Positions 2,300 to 38,428 of a stretch of 64,000 nucleotides of DNA are shown one piece after another. Numbering within the stretch: the first letter of the stretch is position 1; each line of letters opens with the position of its first letter. This stretch comes from Octopus vulgaris. Its lineage: Eukaryota. Made by a program: the position numbers and the translations under genes. A model generated the notes under the pieces. It was not told the DNA's origin and searched no databases. It saw nothing but the letters and a program-made list of their open reading frames with translations. The stretch covers positions 3,472,001 through 3,536,000 of the forward strand of contig CATOCA020000001.1 in the NCBI GenBank assembly GCA_951406725.2, read 5' to 3'.

Positions 2300-3403
2300 A
2301 CGGAATCCCCCGAAAGCTGCTACAGAATCCCACCTGCCGTCGCTCGAACTCGAACCCGGGATCCCAACAAGTCGAGCGACGACGATTGATCAGGCTCGAT
2401 TGATCGACGCAAGTTCGCCACGGAGCCCAGAGAGGAGAGAGACAACAACAACAACAACAGCAGCAGGAAGAGACACAGAGGCAATCGGCTTGCATTTAAC
2501 CTACTAGTTTATAACACTTTTTAATTGTTACAACATCAAATAAATCAAGATACATATCAGGTACATCAAAGAGGAAATACATGCAAGAACAACACATCAA
2601 AGCATTCGGATACAATAACGGTTCAGATTGATGCAATATACAGTCCGGAGACAACAGTTCTGTCTCAAATCACATTAACGTTACAGTTCAGAGGACAATT
2701 AACACATATACGTTCAATGTTCATTAAATTATTTTCAGACAACAACAGAGTCTTTCTTGTCTTTTTCCTTCTTTCTCTTTTTTTTGTAACACGTATCAAT
2801 ACAATTCTTTTTACATAATTCACATATCAACACAATTCACAATGTTCGATTGTTTAACATAATGTCTTTATACTGTCTCATTTCTTTTCACATTAAGTCA
2901 TTAACACATCAACAAGTCCTTTACTCCGCACAACAACTCTTTTACATTTCCTTAATTCACAATGTCTTTATACATTTCTTTAGCCTTTTCTTTATAACAC
3001 ATCAACAACATAAACAAAACATATACCGTAAGTTCTTCGTTTACAAACTCTCACTACAAATAGCCATGCCTTCTCGCCGTAATCTCTCCCAGTCCCTTAA
3101 TCTTCTCTGCCTGTCTTCCTCTGCCACAGCAGAACAAACCATTACTAACTCGCTGTATCATCCCAACTGTTGCCTGTCTCTCACAAACTCCCAACTGCCG
3201 ACTGCTTGCCTTGAATCCCAAATGCCGACTGCCTCTCACAAACTGAACTGCTCACTTAAGAGGGTAGCCCTCAAATGAACCTTAATTCACCTGAAAGGGT
3301 CGGGGGTTTCCCCAGAGCTAATTATCAACCCGCATCTGGCAGAACAATGGATTCATTCCCAAAAGTAGGTCGCCAGCTCTGTCCTTAAGTTGAACTCACA
3401 ACA
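2296..3403 (-). mobile_element. probable solo LTR (Gypsy/BEL-like)
   Basis: 1108-bp non-coding insert with TGTT...AACA termini, flanked by atat on both sides within a (TA)n tract. Orientation inferred from Inr-like cagttcagtt and attaaa on the minus strand. Confidence 0.65.
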
Positions 3404-3778
<375 letters not shown>

Positions 3779-3861
3779 GCGCAGGAGTGGCTGAAATCAA
3801 ATGGATTTATGGATTTCATCAGATAATTGCTTTTTTCCATTGTAACTTATATCAACACTGG

Positions 3862-4225
3862 TTACTCCCTCCACTTTAATGGCGCTTTTCTCTGAAGCAT
3901 ATGTATATTACGTTGTAAGATCGGGTTAGTAGTATTGCTATTCCTAAGCGAAATAAGAAAATATGTATCGCAAATGACAATAATGTGGTTGATCTGTTCA
4001 GTCTTGCTTTTGTACGGCCTACATTTGTTGTGTGTCAGTGTGTTTTGCCTTCTATTCTGTAGGTAGTTGGCGGAGATGTCTTGATTTTGAATTGCATGGA
4101 GATAGCTTTCAAAGTGGGATGTCATAAATTAATCGCTCCTCCATGCCTAACTTCTGACATGATCAATCCCTTCTATGGTTTGTGCGGAGCGGGCTTTTTC
4201 TTCTAGTCTTAATAAGGAACCTACC
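3862..4225 (-). pseudogene. RLE-type (R2/R4/NeSL group) non-LTR retrotransposon fragment
   Basis: TSHFESYLHAIQNQDISANYL...KCR...E.INHII..C resembles the CCHC-knuckle region that precedes an RLE domain (compare 39842-40063). Confidence 0.6.
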
Positions 4226-4870
4226 TTTTCTCTGAAAATGGTCCTTTCTAATATTTCTTTCCACACCACAGCTAACTCAGTCTTTGCTGGGTTAAGCAAT
4301 CTACACTAAGGTTTATTCTCTAAGTTTACTTTATGGTCCTTCACCGTTGGAAAAGAGGGTCGTGCGTGCCAGATAGTCTATCCTATCATCTATTTGTAGT
4401 TTTGTTGCAAACACTTTGGTTTCTAGATTAATAGATATATAAGCTCCATTTCTAGATTTCTTATAAATAAAGGAAGCCCTTTTATATATACAAACCCCTT
4501 GACTATGTATATTCTTTATTTTATCGTAGGAAACATGTAACTGATATGATTTGTGTCAATATATGAATTGTTCGTTCATCTTACATTGGAAGCTATTTGG
4601 CATCTGATGAAACATGAATCTTTTTTAAGATATTTAAAACACATTCTTTCACTTTCCCAACATCCATTTGTTATTCAGTTGGTATCATATTCTGAAGTCA
4701 CATTTTTTCATCTTTATATCACCCAGGCACTCCGCTTTCAAAACAATGAACACGCCAGCTCAATCGTCTTATAAAGCATTCTGTTTTTTGCCAACGTACA
4801 TTTCACGTAATAATTCGTCTCGAAATTGGAAGGTCCTTGGTCGAGAAATCGAATTGATGTTTATTCCTGA
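4225..4870 (-). pseudogene. Penelope-like reverse transcriptase relic
   Basis: Minus-strand FPTVKDHKVNLENKP*CRLLNPAKTELAVVWKEILER matches the PLE RT N-terminal motif (TLKDHK..F..KP.CRLINP.K.E.G). Confidence 0.7.
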
Positions 4871-4954
4871 TCAGACCGATTATATTGATCCGTCTTTGTT
4901 AAGTGCAAAACAGCAACTAAAGAAAGCTGAACATTTCATATATTATTTTATTCG

Positions 4955-5135
4955 TTTACTCTTTTACTTGTTTCAGTCATTTGACTGCGGCCATGCTGGA
5001 ACACCACCTTAAAGTGTGTTAGTCGAAGGAATCGACCCCAGGACTTATTCTTTGTAAGCGTAGTGCTTACTCTATCGTTTGTTTTACCGAACTGCTAAGT
5101 TAGTTACGGTGACTAAAACGCACCAACTTCGGTTT
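4955..5135 (-). mobile_element. SINE family A, 3' half
   Basis: tttcagtcatttgactgcggccatgctgg...gacttattctttgtaagc matches the family tail. Confidence 0.8.
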
Positions 5136-5378
5136 TTATAAATGTTCTCTTTTATAAACATTCTCTTTATAAATGTTCTGAAATCTTTCATAGCCTTGGA
5201 TTTTTTTTTATCGCATTCTGTGACCTTTTTTATATATACACATGCTGATATATGACCTACGTTGGAACCTCATTCCTATAATCATCGAACCTGGAGCTTC
5301 ACTATAGTCTGTCCATACCATTTACTCAGCATTACCTGACACCTTTGTGTCTTCTTGACACCATTACCTCTCATAACC

Positions 5379-5433
<55 letters not shown>

Positions 5434-5524
5434 CCACTTATGTATATCAGGTTCGAAAGAAAGACCTGCATTTGAATTTCAAGATGACAAAGAAACAGTG
5501 CCTGAAATAAATAGCAGCATTAAT

Positions 5525-5577
5525 CAGCAGCAGCGCTACCGCCGCATAGAATTACCAGGCCATAGCTGCTGCCTGCT
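5525..5577 (+). other. candidate rolling-circle origin stem-loop (CRESS-virus-like)
   Basis: TAGAATTAC at 5547-5555 (one mismatch to TAGTATTAC) between imperfect inverted arms gcagcagc(gc)ta...gcc and ggc...tagctgctgc, ~70 bp upstream of the capsid-like ATG. Confidence 0.5.
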
Positions 5578-5626
5578 GCCTATGACGTAATAGCCTGCAA
5601 CATCCTAGCAGTCGTCAGTCAGCATT

Positions 5627-6355
5627 ATGCTGTACAGGAGACGCCCACGCATTATAGGCAGGCGAAAGAGTTTTTTAGGAAGAGGAATGTATTACGTAAT
5701 CGGAGACGTTATCGACGCCGTCGGCAGTATCGTCGTCGCCGTAATGGAAGATACACTATTTATCCTCTACCCCCCCCGTGTTAGACAATCATCAGTTCAA
5801 TCTTTTTTTAAAGTGGAACAACTAAAAATTAAAGATGAAAAAACTCCTATGACAATATCATGTACATGGGCACAAATGAATGATTCAATTGAGAATGTAA
5901 AAGCTAACATATGGAGAACGCTATTCGATCAGTGGCAGGTTCTACGTTTCCGATATGTATTTGAAGTATATAAAAAACAAAAAGCTGGTGCAATTATCCC
6001 AAGACTATATTACACTTACGATCGAGATATTCAAGGCAAACATATAGATGACTCAGAAATATTTAACATATTAAGAGAAAACAGAAGAGTTAAAGTTTCC
6101 TATCGTCCAAGATGGACTTGGATTACACACGATAAAAGTAATGATGAAGGTGACCCTAACCCATATCCTAATACGATCGTTAGAGGTTCACAACGATGGG
6201 ATATGGCACCAGCTCCTTTCGGTGAAAATCCAAACAAAGCATTTCCTCAACATAGTTATAACGGTATGGCTATGGTTCTTCATGCTCAGCCTAACTCCAG
6301 TATACTTCTACGTAAATTTATTGGTCGAAGAGATACCCAAATTTACAAAAATTGA
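5627..6355 (+). CDS. endogenous CRESS-DNA-virus (circovirus-like) capsid protein
   Basis: 242-aa non-repetitive ORF with a basic start (MLYRRRPRIIGRRKS) and a -1-frame Arg-rich arm at 5677-5769. WRTLFDQWQVLRFRYVF, PRLYYTYDRD, KVSYRPRW and PQHSYNG resemble motifs of CRESS jelly-roll capsids. No TE motifs. Assigned by eye only. Confidence 0.7.
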   Translation: MLYRRRPRIIGRRKSFLGRGMYYVIGDVIDAVGSIVVAVMEDTLFILYPPRVRQSSVQSFFKVEQLKIKDEKTPMTISCTWAQMNDSIENVKANIWRTLFDQWQVLRFRYVFEVYKKQKAGAIIPRLYYTYDRDIQGKHIDDSEIFNILRENRRVKVSYRPRWTWITHDKSNDEGDPNPYPNTIVRGSQRWDMAPAPFGENPNKAFPQHSYNGMAMVLHAQPNSSILLRKFIGRRDTQIYKN

Positions 6356-6584
6356 CTAGTCTCATCGAGATGGGAAGACAATTATGGTTCAGTTGGTGAA
6401 TGTGAAGAAGAAAGAGATCCTGAGAGGAAAAGAGACTGAATATTATTTCAACTTACCGTTTACACGTGAAGAATGAACTAGAAACAATTTTCTCGCTGTA
6501 ACCGATCTTCAGTTTTAAATTTAATAAAGCAAGCGCATGCGAATTTTGGGTTAGAAAGATAGACACACATAGATATGTAGATGT

Positions 6585-6740
6585 ATACGATGGTCTTCGC
6601 CCCGTTTCCATCTAGCAAATCCACTTACAAGACTTTGTAAGGCTATAGTAGTAGGCTATAGTAGTAGACACTTGCCGAACATGCCACGCAGTGGGACTGA
6701 ACTCGGAACCATGTGGTTGGAAAGCCACGCCTGCGCCTAT
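6585..6740 (-). mobile_element. SINE family A, 5' half, degenerate
   Basis: gccacgcagtgggactgaactcggaaccatgtggttgg. Confidence 0.8.
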
Positions 6741-6744
6741 AAAT

Positions 6745-7015
6745 CATCTGTTTGGAAGCTAGTTTGTGAGGGAAAGCCTCTTGCTTTGTTAATCATCGTT
6801 TGTAATCATACAAATGTCTTACAAATTTTATAGTTCCGGATAATGGGTCTGAAAGAAAGATTTACATTCTCTCTTTAAGATTTCCAGTTCAGCCAAAATT
6901 CACTCCAGACTGGTCGGTACACATCCTCTTGCTCCAATAATACAAAGCTGAAAGTGTAACTTGGGGACTGGATTTGCAAACACCTTATCAATGTTTCATG
7001 AATGTCCGCTTTCTT
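6745..7015 (-). pseudogene. RLE endonuclease C-terminal relic of a non-LTR element
   Basis: Frameshifted minus-strand translation LIRCLQIQSPSYTFSF..IIGARGCVPTSL...LSGTIK resembles the P.IIGA.G motif at the end of RLE domains. Confidence 0.5.
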
Positions 7016-7039
7016 TTCTATTTTTTATACGCATATCGA

Positions 7040-7590
7040 TGTTGTGTATGTATGTATGTATGTGTATGTATGTATGTATGTATGTATGTATGTGTGTATG
7101 TATGTAGGTATGTATGTATGTATGTATGTGTGTATGTATGTGTGTATGTATGTGTGTGTGTATGTATGTGTGTGTATGTATGTATGTGTGTATGTGTGTA
7201 TGTATGTATGTATGTGTGTGTATGTATGTATGTATGTATGTATGTGTGTATGTGTGTGTATGTGTGTGTGTATGTATCTATGTATGTGTGTATGTGTGTA
7301 TGTATGTATGTGTGTATGTGTGTGTATGTATGTGTGTGTATGTATGTGTGTGTATGTATGTATGTATGTATGTGTGTATGTATGTATGTGTGTGTATGTA
7401 TGTATGTATGTGTGTGTATATGTATGTATGTGTGTGTATGTATGTATGTGTGTATGTATGTATGTATGTATGTGTGTATGTATGTGTATGTATGTATGTG
7501 TATGCAATTATGTATGTATGCGTGTATGCATGTATGTATGTGTGTGTATGTATGTGTGTATGTATGTATGTATGCAATTATGTATGTATG
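7040..7590. repeat. (TGTA)n/(TG)n compound microsatellite
   Basis: Direct reading; source of several spurious ORFs. Confidence 0.97.
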
Positions 7591-7597
7591 CATATTT

Positions 7598-8092
7598 CGA
7601 GTGCTACTGGTAACATGTAATCCAGTACAACCTGTTGTATGGTCGGGTCGTCAGCGACTAAACCGGCAACCTCACCAAGCTCGCTTGGTGAGGAGGGTGT
7701 TTATTGGACACCCTGCAGGATGATAAACAAAACCCGTCAAAGGGCGGAGGAACTCTTGTGAGTCAACGGCCATCCGATAAATGTCTTAAGGCTGTATCAT
7801 GCGCGGGGACATAGAAATAATCGGATTGAATACCCGATCGCGCAGTTAAACCATTGGGAGTGAAGGACTTCTAGCCATTGTTAGGGTATCCTTCTAGGAG
7901 AAGGTAATTCAGGTAACTGGGATAACTCCAATATAAAACCTGCGGCTCAGTGTTTACCGATGATGTTGACTTGTTCTTCTTTTCGGATTATGGCTGCTGT
8001 TGCTTAGTGAGTGGGATTGACTCAGTGCACAGCCTTTCCTCACTTTAAAAAAAAATCTTCTTGCACAGGCAGTGTACGATAACAACATTTAT
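7598..8092 (+). mobile_element. RTE-5'UTR-like non-autonomous element
   Basis: Contains ctaggagaaggtaa...taaaacc (RTE 5'UTR-type motif); reverse-complement homologues at ~44600-44745 and ~49900-50113. Confidence 0.6.
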
Positions 8093-9380
8093 TAAGTTGA
8101 GGGTTGGCATCGAGTACAGTGAAGAATTCCGGGTAGAGGTTGGGGTCCACCAAGGTTCAGTCCTCAGTCCCCTCCTATTTATCATAGTCCTCCAGGCAAT
8201 AACGGAGGAATTCAAGACAAGATGCCCCTGGGAGCTCCTCTATGCTGATGACCTTGCTGTAATTGCTGAGTCTCTATCAGAACTAGAGGGGAAGTTTCAG
8301 GTGTGGAAGCAAGGTTTAGAATCAAAGGGCCTTAGAATCAATCTAGCCAAAACCAAAGTCTTAATAAGTTGGAAGGTAGACAAATCACAAACGCCTTCAG
8401 CTAGATGGCCCTGCTCGATCTGTAAAAAAGGCGTAGGTAGAAACTCTATACGATGCATCAAGTGTAAGCTATGGACACATAAGAGATGTAGTAATGTCAA
8501 AGGAAGACTAACTAGGAAAATAGTTTTTATCTGTGGCAGATGCTCAGGAGCAATAAACACTGAAAATGCACAGAGACCAACTTCCGCCACATTCCAGGGA
8601 GAAAAACTAGAAATAGTTGATAGCTTCCGTTACCTAGGTGACCAAGTCAGTAGCGGGGGCGGGTGTGCTGAAAGTGTAACTGCTAGAGTAAGAATAGCCT
8701 GGGCAAAGTTCAGAGAGCTCTTACATCTGCTGGTGACAAAAGGCCTCTCGCTCAGAGTAAAAGGCAGACTGTATGATGCATGTGTACGTACAGCCATGCT
8801 ACATGGTAGTGAAACATGAGCTGTGACTGCTGAGGATATGTGTAAGCTCGCAAGAAATAAAGCCAGTATGCTCCAATGGATGTGTAATGTCAGTGTTCAT
8901 ACTCGGCAGAGTGTAAGTACCTTGAGAGAAAAGTTGGACCTAAGCAGCATCAGTTGTGGTGTGCAAGAGAGACGTTTGCACTGGTATGGTCATGTGGCAA
9001 GAATGGATGAAGATAGTTGTGTGAAAAAGTGCCACACCCTAGCGGTTGAGGGAACCTGTGGAAGAGGTAGACTCAGGAAAACCTGGGACGAGGTGGTGAA
9101 GCACGACCTTCGAACATTAGGTCTCACCGAGGAAATGACTAGTGACCGAGACCTTTGGAAGTATGCTGTGCATGAGAAGACCCGGCAGGACAAGTGAGAC
9201 CATAACCCGTGGCCTCTACCTGGGATGTAGCCAGTCCACTTGTGCATGCCTTTCCTTCTTGGGACACAAAACTCTACTTGTGAGGACCTGTTGAGGCAAG
9301 TGAAAATCGAAATTGATCAACATAAATGGAAATTGTAGTTGTGATACCAGTGCCAGTGACATGTAAGAGAACCATCTGAA
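8093..9380 (+). mobile_element. 5'-truncated RTE LINE (RT 3' half, PHD-like finger, partial 3'UTR)
   Basis: GVHQGSVLSPLLF, LLYADDL, RRLHWYGHV, GRGRLRKTW; premature stop at 8817-8819; close to the 36329-38428 ORF. Confidence 0.92.
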
Positions 9381-20619: not shown

Positions 20620-23600
20620 CAGCATGACTGTGTGGTTTAGAAGCCCACTTTGCAACCATGAGGTTTTGAGTTCGGACCCACTGTGCAGCACCTTGGGCAG
20701 ATGTTTTCTGCTACAGCTAAGTTTTCTGCCTTTGGAGGCTATGGCTATGGCTCCCGCAACGAGGAGGGAACCAGGCTGCTGGAGTTCTGCGATGCAAATA
20801 ATCTTATGATTTGCAACACTAACTTCAGGAAACCTACCAGCCACCTAGTCACTTACCGATCGGGCCAACATACCAGCCAAATTGACTACATCCTTGCAAG
20901 GCAAAGGGAGAGATGGCTTCTTATAAATGCCAAAACCTTCCCAGGCGAAGAATGTACCCCACAACATAGACTGGTAGTTAGTGACTTTAGGATCAGGACT
21001 AGGAGGACAACCAGAAGACTAACAATATGGAGAAGAAGGATTTGGAAGCTTAAAGATCCTGCAAATGGACAGAGATTTAGGGACATATTACTTGAAGCCT
21101 TTGACGAAGTAGAAGGGGATAGAGCATCACAGGGGGTAGAAGACAACTAGACGTTTCTAAGGGACAACATGCTGAGAGCCACTGACCAGATCTGTGGCTG
21201 GTGCAAAAGTCCCCTCTCGACCTAGAATAACGTGGTGGTGGAACAATATTGTAGACAGGGCTATTAGAGAAAAGAGACAGGCTTGGAAGGTCTGGAAAAA
21301 TGGGGGTAGCAGGGAATTGTATCAGACTGCCAAAAGAGAAGCTAGGAGACAGGTTTATTTAGCCAGAGGGGAAGCAGATAAGAAAAAATTTGCCAATGTT
21401 CTGCACCGTGAGGACAAAAGACTGGAGGTGTTTCGCGTTGCAAGACAGTGTGTGAGAGAGAATCGTGATGTGGTAGGAGAGAAGTGTGTTCGCATGGAAG
21501 ATGGTTCACTTGCGCTAAATGAGGATGCAAAGAGAGAGGTTTGAAGACGCCACTATGAAAGGTTGCTGAATAAAGAAAATGAATGGGATAAAGAGAGTCT
21601 GCCAAATGTTGACCCAACAGAGGGACAAGCTATCTGAGTTGATAGTTCCGTGGTAGCTAAGACAATTAGAAGCATGAAGACAGGGAAAGCCCCAGGCCCA
21701 TCAGGAATCACTGCAGAGATGCTCAAAATGTCTGGTAGTGTCGGCTATAGCCTAGTCACCCGTATAGTTAATCAGGTAATACACAAAGGAGTCATACCCA
21801 ATGACTGGTGTAGCAGCATAATAGTCAACTGCTACAAAGGTAAAGGTGACGCCCTAGATACAAATAACTACAGAGGTATCAAGGTGTTGGATCAGGTGAT
21901 GAAGGTTACGGAGAGGGTCATAGCCCAACTAATTAGAGAGAGAGTTAGTTTAGATGAGATGCAGTTTGATTTTGTGCCAGGGAAAAGTACCACTGATGCT
22001 ATATTCCTGGTAAGGCAGCTGCAGGAGAAATACCTAGCCAAAGATAAGCCCCTGTACCTGGCTTTTGTTGACATGGAAAAATCCTTCGACAGGGTCCCCC
22101 AATCCATTATCTGGTGGTCAATGAGGAAACTAGGGATAGATGAATAGTTAGTGAGAGCTGTGCGGGCCATGTATAGGGACGCTGCTAGTAAGGTGAGGGT
22201 TGGCAACGAGTACAGTGAAGAATTCCGGGTAGAGGTAGGGGTCCACCAAGGCTCAGTACTCAGCCCCCTCCTATTTATCATAGTCCTCTAGGCAATAACG
22301 GAGGAATTCAAGACAGGATGCCCTTGGGAGCTCCTCTATGCTGATGACCTTGCTCTAATTGCTGAGTCGCTATCAGAACTGGAGGAGAAGTTTCAGGTGT
22401 GGAAACAAGGATTAGAATCGAAGGGCCTCAGAGTCAATCTAGCTAAAACCGAAGTCGTAATCAGTAGGAAGGTAGACAAATCACAAACGCCTTCAGGTAG
22501 ATGGCCCTGCTCGATCTGTAGAAAAGGTGTAGGTAGAAACTCTATAAGATGCACCAAGTTTAAGCTATGGACACATAAGAGGTGCAGCAATGTCAAAGGA
22601 AGGCTAACTAGGAAGATGGTTTTTGTATGTGGCAGATGCTCAGGAACAATAAACACTGAAAATGCTCTGAGACCAACTTCCGTCACTTTCCAGGGAGAAA
22701 AACTAGAAATAGTTGATAGTTTCCGTTACCTAGGTGACCAAGTCAGCAGCGGGGTTGGGTGTGCTGAAAGTGTAACTGCTAGAGTAAGAATAGCTTGGGC
22801 AAAGTTCAGAGAGCTCTTACCTCTGCTGGTGACAAAAGGCCTCTCGCACAGAGTGAAAGGCAGACTGTATGATGCGTGTGTATGAACAGCCATGCTACAT
22901 GGCAGTGAAACATGGGCCGTGACTGCTGAGGATATGCGTAAGCTCGCAAGAAATGAAGCCAGTATGCTCCGATGGATGTGTAATGTCAGTGTTCATACTC
23001 GGCAGAGTGTAAGTACCTTGAGAGAAAACCTGGACCTAAGAAGCATCAGTTGTGGTGTGCAAGAGAGACGTTTGCGCTGGTATGGTCATGTGGCGAGAAT
23101 GGATGAAGATAGTTGTGTGAAAAGTGCCACACCCTAGCGGTTGAGGGAACCTGCGGAAGAGGCAGACCCAGTAAAACCTGGGACGAGGTGGTGAAGCACG
23201 ACCTTCGAACTTTAGGTCTCCCTGAGGAAATGACTAGAGACCGAGACCTCTGGAAGTATGCTGTGCGCGAGAAGACCCGGCAGGACAAGTGAGTTCATAA
23301 CCCGTGGCCTTCTACATGGGATGGAGCCAGCCTACGTATGCATACCTTCCCTTCTTGGGACACAAAACTCAACTTGTGAAGACGTGTTGAGGCAAGTGAG
23401 GATCAGAATTGAAATCGATCAATGGAAATTGCAGATGTGTTACCAGTGCCGGTGGCATGTAAGAGAACCTTCCGTTTCGCGACCGTTGCCAGCGCCGCCC
23501 CGACTGGCCTCCGTGCCGGTGGCACATAAAAAGCACCATCCGTTCATGGCCGTATGCCAGCTCTGTCTGGTACCTGTGCGGGTGGCACGTAAAAAGCACC

Positions 23601-34707: not shown

Positions 34708-35259
34708 ACCATCATCGCCATATATAAAAGAGCGATCGCATTATCGTTAACCCCACTCGCTTCAAAATATCTAAAGAAGAAATACGCACAGATCATGAAT
34801 GGCTAAAGCTAAGTGAATCGTTCAACCTCGCTACGACTACCTTCTATCTTTGCACTTATCATCTTTATTCTTTCACTATTCTTCAATTTCCATCTCATTG
34901 TATTGTTCCTCATTGTTTCAGTATTCCCTCATTACCCTGTCTAGCTCAAACATTTTTTTCGTTTAGTCTTGTCTCCCGGTTCATAGCCACTCTGATTTTT
35001 AAATTTTTTCGTTTAGTCTTGTCTCCCGATTCATAGCCACTCTGATTTATCAAACCCATTTGCTAGCTCATACGATTAACAGAACCTACGGTGCACCCGC
35101 CCTCCCACTCCCTCCACACATGCCGGAAGTTCCTATTCTTTGCCATTCCGGGGTTGCTTCCCATGAAGACTGCAAATGCTCTCACTATCCCTACCACTCC
35201 CTAGTCTCGACCTATGTAAGGTAATGTTCATACAGTGCAAAATATGAAAGGCTAGTGTT

Positions 35260-36285
35260 ATGCAGGTTGTACTGAAGGCTACTTTACTACTTCATTACTT
35301 GCACATGAATTCTGCCAAATGCGAGCTTTCTTTTCAGGTACACGAAGCTACTGTCCACCGTCCCAGGGTCCCTAGTGCCCATGCCTCCCACACCCTCCGG
35401 GTTGGCACCCTCAACGTTGGCACTCTGAAAGGTAGGTCTGGTGAGATAGTCGAGATGCTTGAACGGAGATGTGTGGATATATGTTGCATGCAAGAAATAA
35501 GGTGGAGAGGAGGATCAGCTAGGTTCCTCACAGGCAAGGAACGCAGGTACAAGATTTTCTGGGCAGGGAACACTGACGGGGTTGGTGGCGTGGGTATACT
35601 TATCGCTGAGAAATGGGTAGATAAAGTAATTGAGGTAATCAGAGTATGTGACAGAATACTTAAGATTAGATTAGTGCTTCATCATAGTTTAGCAACCATT
35701 ATATCAGCCTATGCTCCTCAGTCGGGGCTACCCGATGGACAGAAAGACCGATTCTATGACACTCTACTGCAGACTACCTCGTTGACGAATGACAGAGACC
35801 TTATCTTTGTGGCTGGTGACTTCAATGGTCACGTTGGACGACATGCTGGGGGCTTCCATGGCGTACATGGAGGCTATGGCTATGGCTCCCGCAACGAGGA
35901 GGGAACCAGGCTGCTGGAGTTCTGCGATGCAAATAATCTTATGATTTGCAACACTAACTTCAGGAAACCTACCAGCCACCTAGTCACTTACCGATCGGGC
36001 CAACATACCAGCCAAATTGACTACATCCTTGCAAGGCAAAGGGAGAGATGGCTGCTTATAAATGCCAAAACCTTCCCAGGTGAAGAATGTATCCCACAAC
36101 ATAGACTGGTAGTTAGTGACTTTAGGATCAGGACTAGGAGGACAACCAGAAGACGACAAATATGGAGAAGAAGGATCTGGAAGCTTAAAGATCCTGCAAA
36201 TGGACAGAGGTTTAGGGACATATTACTTGAAGCCTTTGGCGAAGTAGAAGGGGATAGAGCATCACAGGGGGTAGAAGACAACTAG
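35260..36285 (+). CDS. RTE apurinic-type endonuclease ORF
   Basis: VGTLNVGTL, CCMQEIRW, GVGIL, ISAYAPQ, AGDFNGHVG, SQIDYIL, QHRLVV. Confidence 0.9.
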   Translation: MQVVLKATLLLHYLHMNSAKCELSFQVHEATVHRPRVPSAHASHTLRVGTLNVGTLKGRSGEIVEMLERRCVDICCMQEIRWRGGSARFLTGKERRYKIFWAGNTDGVGGVGILIAEKWVDKVIEVIRVCDRILKIRLVLHHSLATIISAYAPQSGLPDGQKDRFYDTLLQTTSLTNDRDLIFVAGDFNGHVGRHAGGFHGVHGGYGYGSRNEEGTRLLEFCDANNLMICNTNFRKPTSHLVTYRSGQHTSQIDYILARQRERWLLINAKTFPGEECIPQHRLVVSDFRIRTRRTTRRRQIWRRRIWKLKDPANGQRFRDILLEAFGEVEGDRASQGVEDN

Positions 36286-36328
36286 ACATTTCTAAGGGAC
36301 AACCTGCTGAGAGCCACTGACCAGATCT

Positions 36329-38428
36329 GTGGCTGGTGCAAAAGTCCCCTCCCGACGTAGAATAACGTGGTGGTGGAACAATATTGTAGACAGGGCTATT
36401 AGACAAAAGAGACAGGCTTGGAAGGTCTGGAAAAATGGGGGTAGCAGGGAATTGTATCAGACTGCCAAAAGAGAAGCTAGGAGACAGGTTTATTTAGCCA
36501 GAGGGGAAGCAGATAAGAAAAAATTTGCCAATGTTCTGCGACTTGAGGACCAAAGACTGGAGGTGTTTCGCGTTGCAAGACAGTGTGTGAGAGAGAATCG
36601 TGATGTGGTAGGAGAGAAGTTTGTTCGCATGGAAGATGGTTCACTTGCGCTAAATGAGGATGCAAAGAGAGAAGTTTGGAGATGCCACTATGAAAGGTTG
36701 CTGAATAAAGAAAATGAATGGGATAAAGAGAGTCTGCCGAATGTTGACCCAACAGAGGGACCAGCTATCCGAGTTGATAGTTCCGTGGTAGCTAAGGCAA
36801 TTAGAAGCATGAAGACAGGGAAAGCCCCAGGCCCATCAGGAATCACTGCAGAGATGCTCAAAATGTCTGGTAGTGTCGGCTATAGCCTAGTCACCCGTAT
36901 AGTTAATCAGGTGATACACAAAGGAGTCATACCCAATGACTGGGGTAGCAGCATAATAGTCAACTGCTACAAAGGTAAAGGTGACGCCCTAGATACAAAT
37001 AACTACAGAGATATCAAGCTGTTGGATCAGATGATGAAGGTTACGGAGAGGGTCATAGCCCAACTAATTAGAGAGAGAGTTAGTTTAGATGAGATGCAGT
37101 TTGGGTTTGTGCCAGGGAAAAGTACTACTGATGCTATATTCCTGGTAAGGCAGCTGCAGGAGAAATACCTAGCCAAAGATAAGCCCCTGTACCTGGCTTT
37201 TGTTGACATGGAGAAAGCCTTCGACAGGGTCCCCCGATCCCTTATCTGGTGGGCAATGAGGAAACTAGGGATAGATGAATGGTTAGTGAGAGCTGTGCGG
37301 GCCATGTACAGAGACGCTGCTAGTAAGGTGAGAGTTGGCAACGAGTACAGTGAAGATTTCCGGGTAGAGGTTGGGGTCCACCAAGGTTCAGTCCTCAGTC
37401 CCCTCCTATTTATCATAGTCCTCCAGGCAATAACGGAGGAATTCAAGACAGGATGCCCTTGGGAGCTCCTCTATGCTGATGACCTTGCTCTAATTGCTGA
37501 GTCGCTATCAGAACTGGAGGAGAAGTTTCAGGTGTGGAAACAAGGATTAGAATCGAAGGGCCTCAGAGTCAATCTAGCTAAAACCAAAGTCGTAATCAGT
37601 AGGAAGGTAGACAAATCACAAACGCCTTCAGGTAGATGGCCCTGCTCGATCTGTAGAAAAGGTGTAGGTAGAAACTCTATAAGATGCACCAAGTGTAAGC
37701 TATGGACACATAAGTGGTGCAGCAATGTCAAAGGAAGGCTAACTAGGAATATGGTTTTTGTATGTGGCAGATGCTCAGGAACAATAAACACTGAAAATGC
37801 TCTGAGACCAACTTCCGTCACTTTCCAGGGAGAAAAACTAGAAATAGTTGATAGTTTCCGTTACCTAGGTGACCAAGTCAGCAGCGGGGTTGGGTGTGCT
37901 GAAAGTGTAACTGCTAGAGTAAGAATAGCTTGGGCAAAGTTCAGAGAGCTCTTACCTCTGCTGGTGATAAAAGGCCTCTCGCACAGAGTGAAAGGCAGAC
38001 TGTATGATGCGTGTGTACGAACAGCCATTCTACATGGCAGTGAAACATGGGCCGTGACTGCTGAGGATATGCGTAAGCTCGCAAGAAATGAAGCCAGTAT
38101 GCTCCGATGGATGTGTAATGTCAGTACTCATACTCGGCAGAGTGTAAGTACCTTGAGAGAAAACCTGGACCTAAGAAGCATCAGTTGTGGTGTGCAAGAG
38201 AGACGTTTGCGCTGGTATGGTCATGTGGCGAGAATGGATGAAGATAGTTGTGTGAAAAAGTGCCACACCCTAGCGGTTGAGGGAACCTGTGGAAGAGGCA
38301 GACCCAGGAAAACCTGGGATGAGGTGGTGAAGCACGACCTTCGAACTTTAGGTCTCACTGAGGAAATGACTAGAGACCGAGACCTATGGAAGTGTGCTGT
38401 GCGCGAGAAGACCCGGCAGGACAAGTGA
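36329..38428 (+). CDS. RTE reverse transcriptase ORF with a C4HC3 PHD-like finger
   Basis: 699 uninterrupted codons (GTG start in the track): QFGF, FVDMEKAFDRV, GVHQGSVLSPLLF, LYADDL, YLG, RRLRWYGHV. Confidence 0.93.
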   Translation: MAGAKVPSRRRITWWWNNIVDRAIRQKRQAWKVWKNGGSRELYQTAKREARRQVYLARGEADKKKFANVLRLEDQRLEVFRVARQCVRENRDVVGEKFVRMEDGSLALNEDAKREVWRCHYERLLNKENEWDKESLPNVDPTEGPAIRVDSSVVAKAIRSMKTGKAPGPSGITAEMLKMSGSVGYSLVTRIVNQVIHKGVIPNDWGSSIIVNCYKGKGDALDTNNYRDIKLLDQMMKVTERVIAQLIRERVSLDEMQFGFVPGKSTTDAIFLVRQLQEKYLAKDKPLYLAFVDMEKAFDRVPRSLIWWAMRKLGIDEWLVRAVRAMYRDAASKVRVGNEYSEDFRVEVGVHQGSVLSPLLFIIVLQAITEEFKTGCPWELLYADDLALIAESLSELEEKFQVWKQGLESKGLRVNLAKTKVVISRKVDKSQTPSGRWPCSICRKGVGRNSIRCTKCKLWTHKWCSNVKGRLTRNMVFVCGRCSGTINTENALRPTSVTFQGEKLEIVDSFRYLGDQVSSGVGCAESVTARVRIAWAKFRELLPLLVIKGLSHRVKGRLYDACVRTAILHGSETWAVTAEDMRKLARNEASMLRWMCNVSTHTRQSVSTLRENLDLRSISCGVQERRLRWYGHVARMDEDSCVKKCHTLAVEGTCGRGRPRKTWDEVVKHDLRTLGLTEEMTRDRDLWKCAVREKTRQDK

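Follow-up and report, generated by a model that had tools for sequence, protein, structure and literature searches.

The arm of the Circoviridae capsid acts as an NLS and DNA binder. For CRESS viruses of marine invertebrates, the available part of PMC4498126 reports a nonamer stem-loop origin in 23 of 27 genomes, the sizes of which range between 1,063 and 2,469 nt. According to the same part, many of the Caps encoded by these viruses have no database matches, and the Cap N-termini are disordered, which is perhaps driven by Arg and Lys. Related sequences have also been described as endogenous elements. As far as the accessible sections of PMC6069186 go, the endogenous elements found in molluscs and arthropods are derived from rep, none of the new ones is derived from cap, and divergent caps may escape homology detection. 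The portion of PMC6186406 at hand gives general background only. The literature searched, which held few subscription papers, contained nothing relevant on ssDNA elements in octopus, on cap-derived elements in molluscs, or on compensatory frameshifts in endogenous viral elements.

The locus described here carries an open reading frame of 242 codons, of which the first part is read in one frame and makes best sense, over most of its putative arm, in another. In the initial annotation, it was proposed to be a capsid gene with an Arg-rich arm hidden by two compensating indels at homopolymers, either as consensus errors that mask an intact cap gene or as real frameshifts that replaced the arm. The frame that was called annotated in that proposal is merely the longest ORF; the locus carries no annotation. 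We give an even chance to the reading that the locus is a decaying cap-only endogenous CRESS-like element with two real offsetting frameshifts.

Genomic Setting

The window, i.e., the whole stretch of 64 kb that was analysed, consists of animal-type nuclear DNA with 158 tandem-repeat rows, LINE reverse-transcriptase (RT) frames and interspersed repeats. This repeat landscape may resemble that of octopus genomes. Within the window, host DNA is found on both flanks of the element in the form of microsatellites, interspersed repeats and LINE RT frames. The approximate limits of the element and the positions of its features are collected in Table 1. A 16-base unit in three tandem copies (5134–5180) lies directly to the left. 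No paralogue of the element was found within the 64-kb window, and a search of Rfam returned microsatellite-driven matches only, all below threshold.

The repeats of the window include two nearly complete LINE copies (35248–38428 and 20665–23289), which are 97.4% identical over 2,729 bases and have an equal frame offset between their endonuclease-side and RT-side frames. A third, partial LINE copy is located at 8049–9197. The region 42352–64000 is a tandem segmental duplication with a period of approximately 9.3 kb (97.7% identity over 12.4 kb) and contains broken RT frames.

Table 1. Features of the element and its flanks, with positions in the window.
Feature	Position	Strand	Basis
Second interspersed repeat, left side	4937–5134	.	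Repeat comparison
Microsatellite (AT)n, rough left boundary of the element	5382–5424	.	Tandem-repeat list
GC-rich imperfect hairpin, 17 pairs, 14-nt loop (5544–5557), candidate viral replication origin	5525–5578	+	
Nonamer TAGAATTAC in the hairpin loop, capsid-sense strand	5547–5555	+	One mismatch (position 4) from TAGTATTAC
Open frame of 242 codons, AUG to stop	5627–6355	+	ORF list, homologue alignment
Basic lead peptide read from the AUG, 7 K/R in 14 codons, in-frame first part of the arm	5627–5668	+	
T6 run plus A, inside the 5' break interval (placed by composition only)	5671–5677	+	
Arm rich in Arg, read in the alternative frame, K/R at 15 of 24 codons	5677–5748	+	
Best-supported 3' break interval	5749–5764	+	P0004 scores; anchored-diagonal test
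Conserved core of an unannotated protein family, putative capsid body	5765–6352	+	40–69% identity to 10 fragments
C8 run, longest C or G run of the window, probably long-frame and not the break point	5770–5777	+	
About 7 residues missing relative to homologues, frame kept	6044–6068	+	Multiple alignment
5 residues missing relative to homologues, frame kept	6293–6323	+	5/5 spanning homologues
AATAAA, possible polyadenylation signal, about 170 nt past the stop	6523–6528	+	Motif only
Host interspersed repeat, right limit, six further copies in the window	6555–6725	.	Repeat comparison

Two Frames Across the Arm

The long open frame extends from 5609 to 6355 on the plus strand, with its AUG at 5627, and reads a hydrophobic stretch across the arm. 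The alternative frame, counted from 5677 on the same strand, contains 15 Arg in 31 codons between the T6 and C8 runs. It is part of an open stretch without an AUG (5566–5781) that closes at 5782–5784. The elements of the initial annotation were thus reproduced as far as the letters are concerned: T6 at 5671–5676, C8 at 5770–5777, an Arg-rich frame between them and a hydrophobic stretch in the long frame. Over the 24 codons of the arm, K and R together number 15 in the Arg frame and one in the long frame.

The count of 15 Arg is the highest among all stop-free windows of 31 codons in the six frames of the 64 kb, the runner-up having 12. In three null models with 20,000 runs each, at least 15 Arg arose three times when the long-frame codons were shuffled, and never when the bases were shuffled or the long-frame peptide was redrawn with synonymous codons. 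Since such shuffles and redraws almost never reach this number, the possibility that the Arg tract is a by-product of a selected hydrophobic frame was ruled out. An Arg/Lys-rich N-terminus, with seven K/R in 14 codons followed by 15 in 24, is therefore spread over two frames. The proposal that frameshifts replaced the arm consequently holds for most of the arm, which is shifted, but not for the whole of it, as the first 14 codons of the AUG frame retain their seven basic residues.

Homologues and the Ancestral Frame

A full HMMER scan gave nine matches, two of which (P0007, which is repetitive, and P0008, a beta-helix protein of 4,499 residues) were dropped as spurious before alignment. A profile search added three homologues, so that 10 were kept; a second profile round yielded nothing new (five already-known matches among 512 candidates). 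The search covered forms of up to 424 residues. A word-index search with the whole ORF as the query found no match among 57 candidates. The 10 homologues are unannotated and 50–181 residues long, and they share 40–69% identity with the ORF in local alignment. Several of them begin at an internal Met or end in unalignable tails, like broken or truncated copies. The six for which contig data exist come from contigs of 1,132–2,502 bases. P0004 spans the N-terminal part of the family and P0012 the C-terminal part. The longest contig is 1,799 bases for each of the two, which may be fragments of a single broken gene.

GTDB genomes, phages and plasmids were searched and yielded no relative. One homologue, P0010, is labeled as a 'hypothetical protein' of Erwinia amylovora and lies on a contig of 2,467 bases. 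As no relative turned up in GTDB genomes, P0010 is probably derived from a small viral contaminant of the Erwinia amylovora assembly. The Atlas gave no usable match for it.

Of the 10 homologues, P0004 alone extends into the arm. Lys and Arg make up 16 of its first 30 residues, which are in frame with the core, and its match to the long frame begins at 5765. In a plain pairwise test, the alignment of the 31-residue arm with P0004 was non-significant (E 3.4), which is expected of low-complexity sequence. The gapless diagonal that the core forms with P0004 is more informative about the junction: on it, the Asn-Gly of the Arg frame aligns with Asn-Gly at 5743–5748, and the Leu-Tyr-Pro of the long frame aligns with Leu-Tyr-Pro at 5765–5773. 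When scored against P0004 on this anchored diagonal, the long frame throughout gave −11, the Arg frame throughout +2, and the best switch from one to the other +22. The score of the 12-residue junction was matched by 18 of 20,000 shuffles. The K/R-rich N-terminus of P0004, in one frame with its core, agrees with the Arg-arm reading. Conservation of the hydrophobic frame in homologues, which had been named as speaking against that reading, was found in none of the 10, and the hydrophobic stretch has no match in any of them. At the level of sequence comparison with the one homologue that spans the arm, it is thus supported that the Arg frame is the ancestral arm.

Position of the Breaks and State of the Gene

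When the break (X) was placed at 5749–5764, the score against P0004 was 234–237, compared with 221–224 when it was placed at or beside C8. Because the former interval outscores the latter, the 3' break lies probably upstream of C8 and away from any long run, the longest run in the interval being three bases. C8 was rejected as the 3' break on the same scores. The placement is probable rather than certain, since it depends on one homologue with approximately 40% identity and since Tyr-Pro is encoded in both frames. The two Tyr-Pro sites lie seven bases apart (5761–5774) and may reflect a short duplication at this break. For the 5' break, composition alone gives an interval of about 5669–5677, T6 included. 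The homopolymers had been taken as the break points in the initial annotation; T6 still qualifies, as it lies inside the interval placed by composition, but C8 probably does not, as P0004 puts the break before it. That both runs are break points is an interpretation and not an observation.

The core carries two further lesions. The deficit at 6044–6068 was seen against all four spanning homologues in the multiple alignment; in pairwise alignments, the gaps were 7, 5 and 2+5 residues for three of these homologues, and the local alignment of the fourth ends early. The stop of the ORF falls at the position where P0006 and P0012 end. Judged from the alignment, the two in-frame core gaps mean that the capsid-like gene is degenerate, not intact, whatever reads give at T6 and C8. 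Beyond the stop, an acidic stretch of 27 codons continues in the same frame (6356–6436); it has no Pfam match and could be viral 3' sequence.

The view that two errors mask an intact cap gene is not supported, given the two in-frame core gaps and the low local indel rate. A milder version would be that both shifts are consensus errors and that the arm is in frame with the core in the true allele, in which the core gaps remain. T6 indeed lies within the 5' break interval, no other C or G run of the window is as long as C8, and the Arg frame is undecayed. Run-length differences also occur in this DNA: the only indel that distinguishes the LINE copies falls at an A5 run, and the 52 gaps in the 12.4-kb duplicate pair include two T-run length differences. 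However, the 3' break interval contains no run longer than three bases, and a comparison of the two LINE copies over 2,729 bases shows 71 substitutions and only this one indel. At such a rate, by our own arithmetic, two indels in approximately 90 bases would occur with a probability of about 0.0005. Moreover, losses of 21 and 15 bases are impossible as homopolymer slips, so the gene would still not be intact. The frame offset of the LINEs is common to both copies, and six runs of 5–7 bases within the core agree with the frame of the homologues. Consensus error at both sites is, on balance, improbable, and we infer that the two offsetting frameshifts are real.

T6 and the following A also form the heptamer U UUU UUA, a retroviral-type slippery sequence. 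It has the phase of the AUG frame, and the ORF contains only one other slippery-type site in phase. Given that the Arg frame is intact, dual coding can be envisaged, in which a slip at 5671–5677 and the stop at 5782–5784 would give a protamine-like peptide of approximately 50 residues next to the long product. It is very improbable that the locus works in this way. Four pseudoknot-free folds gave no stimulatory RNA structure downstream of the heptamer, all of them being weaker than the shuffles (z between +0.80 and +1.91), the 7-mer occurs 20 times on the plus strand of the window, and P0004 has its arm and core in one frame.

A Candidate Origin and the Affiliation of the Element

The hairpin at 5525–5578 precedes the AUG by 72 nt on the strand that encodes the ORF and has a DNA folding energy of −14.3 kcal/mol (z −2.35). 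It was overlooked in the initial annotation, and its stem contains CAG/CTG repeats. The nonamer in its loop matches the canonical NANTATTAC in eight of nine positions and departs from it at position 4. Sites with one mismatch number 19 in the window versus 33.6 expected, so that the motif alone is not enriched. Their location is more telling, as one of these 19 sites, and none of 303 sites with two mismatches, is found in the loop of a strong hairpin. Shuffles of 5430–5626 reproduced the loop nonamer once in 20,000, with thresholds that were fixed after the hairpin had been seen. A literature search on the nonamer variant gave no CRESS title among the matches listed. On these observations, the origin-like hairpin may independently indicate a CRESS-type virus.

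Searches of Pfam, PHROGs and PDB sequences returned nothing meaningful for the ORF or the family, and no capsid was present among PDB sequence or profile matches with E values up to 10, whether the ORF or the profiles were used. Two AlphaFold models had pLDDT values of 35.0 and 36.9 and were unusable; a fold search of BFVD with these low-pLDDT models gave no match at E up to 0.001, and the best fold-search match obtained from them had a Z of 2.7 and an rmsd of 4.7 with 99 aligned residues. The spacing of motifs in the core may resemble that of CRESS jelly-roll capsids. Rep was sought in several ways. No Rep family was detected among 84 six-frame ORFs of at least 30 residues in 2300–7050, 10 flank pieces held no Rep remnant, and regexes for Rep motifs gave two isolated matches far from the locus. 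A Rep remnant in the flanks was rejected after these ORF, flank and motif searches, but a cap-only fragment need not carry Rep. We infer that the ORF is of capsid identity, and its CRESS membership rests on the Arg arm and the hairpin. Membership of the Circoviridae is not supported by the sequence, since there is neither Cap similarity nor Rep.

A reading outside the CRESS viruses would assign the ORF to an unrecognised family with a basic N-terminus that originates from another small virus, a mobile element or the host. It would account for the failure of sequence, profile and fold searches to return a capsid, for the lack of a Rep, and for the one homologue that is labeled as a bacterial hypothetical protein. 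We nevertheless consider it distinctly unlikely. The origin-like hairpin is on the same strand at a short distance upstream, the Arg arm is followed by a core of about 195 residues with the motif spacing just mentioned, and GTDB genomes, phages and plasmids gave no relative. In addition, the contigs of the six homologues with contig data are of the size of CRESS genomes as given in the available part of PMC4498126.

The Hydrophobic Patch and the Question of Selection

No selection is needed to explain why the frame is open across the arm: of 20,000 synonymous redraws of the Arg peptide, 15,694 (78%) contained no stop when read in the shifted frame. The hydrophobic look of the patch results from the CGT/CGC codons of the arm, which are read as Val/Ala out of frame. 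When the arm's own Arg codons were permuted, the hydrophobicity was unchanged (mean 1.41, observed 1.29). Two of the 14 Arg codons in the arm end in A, as opposed to 13 of the core's 16 (p = 0.0007). Compared with redraws that have core-like third bases, the patch is in the top 1–2% of hydrophobicity, and it is more hydrophobic than all 9,118 open redraws that use the Arg codons of the lead and the core. A repeat-like expansion of the arm may account for both the codon bias and this tail, as expanded codons are not independent of one another. Post-shift selection is a less likely cause, given that neither the Arg frame, which has no stop, nor its CpGs (observed/expected 1.58) have decayed. A function of the patch as a membrane anchor was rejected: despite a best 19-residue hydropathy of 1.8, its longest uncharged run has 10 residues, which is not enough to cross a membrane.

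What speaks most strongly against plain decay is the preservation of the frame by all four lesions, with no stop. In simulations, a random offsetting pair of shifts stayed open in 30,086 of 200,000 trials (15%), and 5% of substitutions yield stops. By our own arithmetic, the joint neutral chance of four frame-keeping lesions without a stop is about 0.001–0.005, if the chance of opposite sign is taken as one half and that of two in-frame gaps as one in nine, with 10–40 substitutions. This argument is weakened, though not abolished, by ascertainment and by the gaps that may have been inherited from the source virus.

The same argument is the main reason to consider co-option, in which the host keeps the 242-codon frame as a capsid-derived protein with its arm cut to the basic lead and the hydrophobic patch. 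The stop at the homologous place, the presence of an AUG and an AATAAA, and the position of the patch in the tail of the codon-use nulls are consistent with it, and intact, apparently selected CRESS rep insertions in invertebrates are reported in the accessible sections of PMC6069186. However, the locus was picked in the initial annotation for its long ORF, and the core gaps may stem from the source virus. The stop-free Arg frame and the retained CpGs leave little time for remodelling, the uncharged run does not suffice for a membrane span, and the hydrophobic frame occurs in no homologue. Taken together, co-option is unlikely. It is improbable, too, that the locus is a domesticated CRESS capsid in which the arm was recoded by the shifts, the core was reshaped by the gaps, and the heptamer possibly yields the Arg peptide. 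The element is presumably neutral.

Proposed Origin and Comparison with Known Systems

As a decaying cap-only element, the locus would have arisen when a piece of a CRESS-like virus, with the origin hairpin, the capsid gene and the 3' end and without Rep, integrated into the germ line of an animal. The viral gene would originally have had its Arg-rich N-terminal arm and core in one frame. Frameshifts near 5669–5677 and at 5749–5764 would then have displaced about 25–30 codons of the arm from this frame. As displaced Arg codons are usually stop-free, and CGT/CGC become Val/Ala, selection would not be needed to obtain a hydrophobic patch within a long open frame, and the two further in-frame gaps in the core would mark the copy as degenerate.

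If this reading is true, the host animal was infected in its germ line by an undescribed CRESS-like lineage, and the locus is a fossil that derives from cap and retains an origin-like hairpin, a kind that is missed by screens based on Rep or known Caps. The 10 unannotated homologues may serve as a probe for this lineage, for which the element provides a hint of a host. Caution is also advised with long ORFs in general, as a hydrophobic N-terminal stretch can be a shifted Arg arm. Should the frame prove to be conserved and translated, the locus would be a rare case of a co-opted ssDNA-virus capsid.

Like Circoviridae capsids of the PCV2/BFDV type, the present ORF has a length of about 250 codons and an Arg-rich N-terminal arm followed by a core; unlike them, it gave no match to Pfam or PDB with E values as high as 10, nor did its profiles, and no Rep was found. 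The layout agrees with that of the marine-invertebrate CRESS viruses in the available part of PMC4498126. In contrast to those viruses, the element is situated in host DNA and has no detected Rep, a shifted arm and a gapped core, and its nonamer differs from NANTATTAC at position 4. The endogenous circoviral/CRESS elements in the accessible sections of PMC6069186 are likewise partial, are flanked by kilobases of host DNA and have open frames in some cases. Whereas the new elements described there are all rep-derived, the present one is too divergent for known Cap probes, is cap-like only, and keeps an origin-like hairpin.
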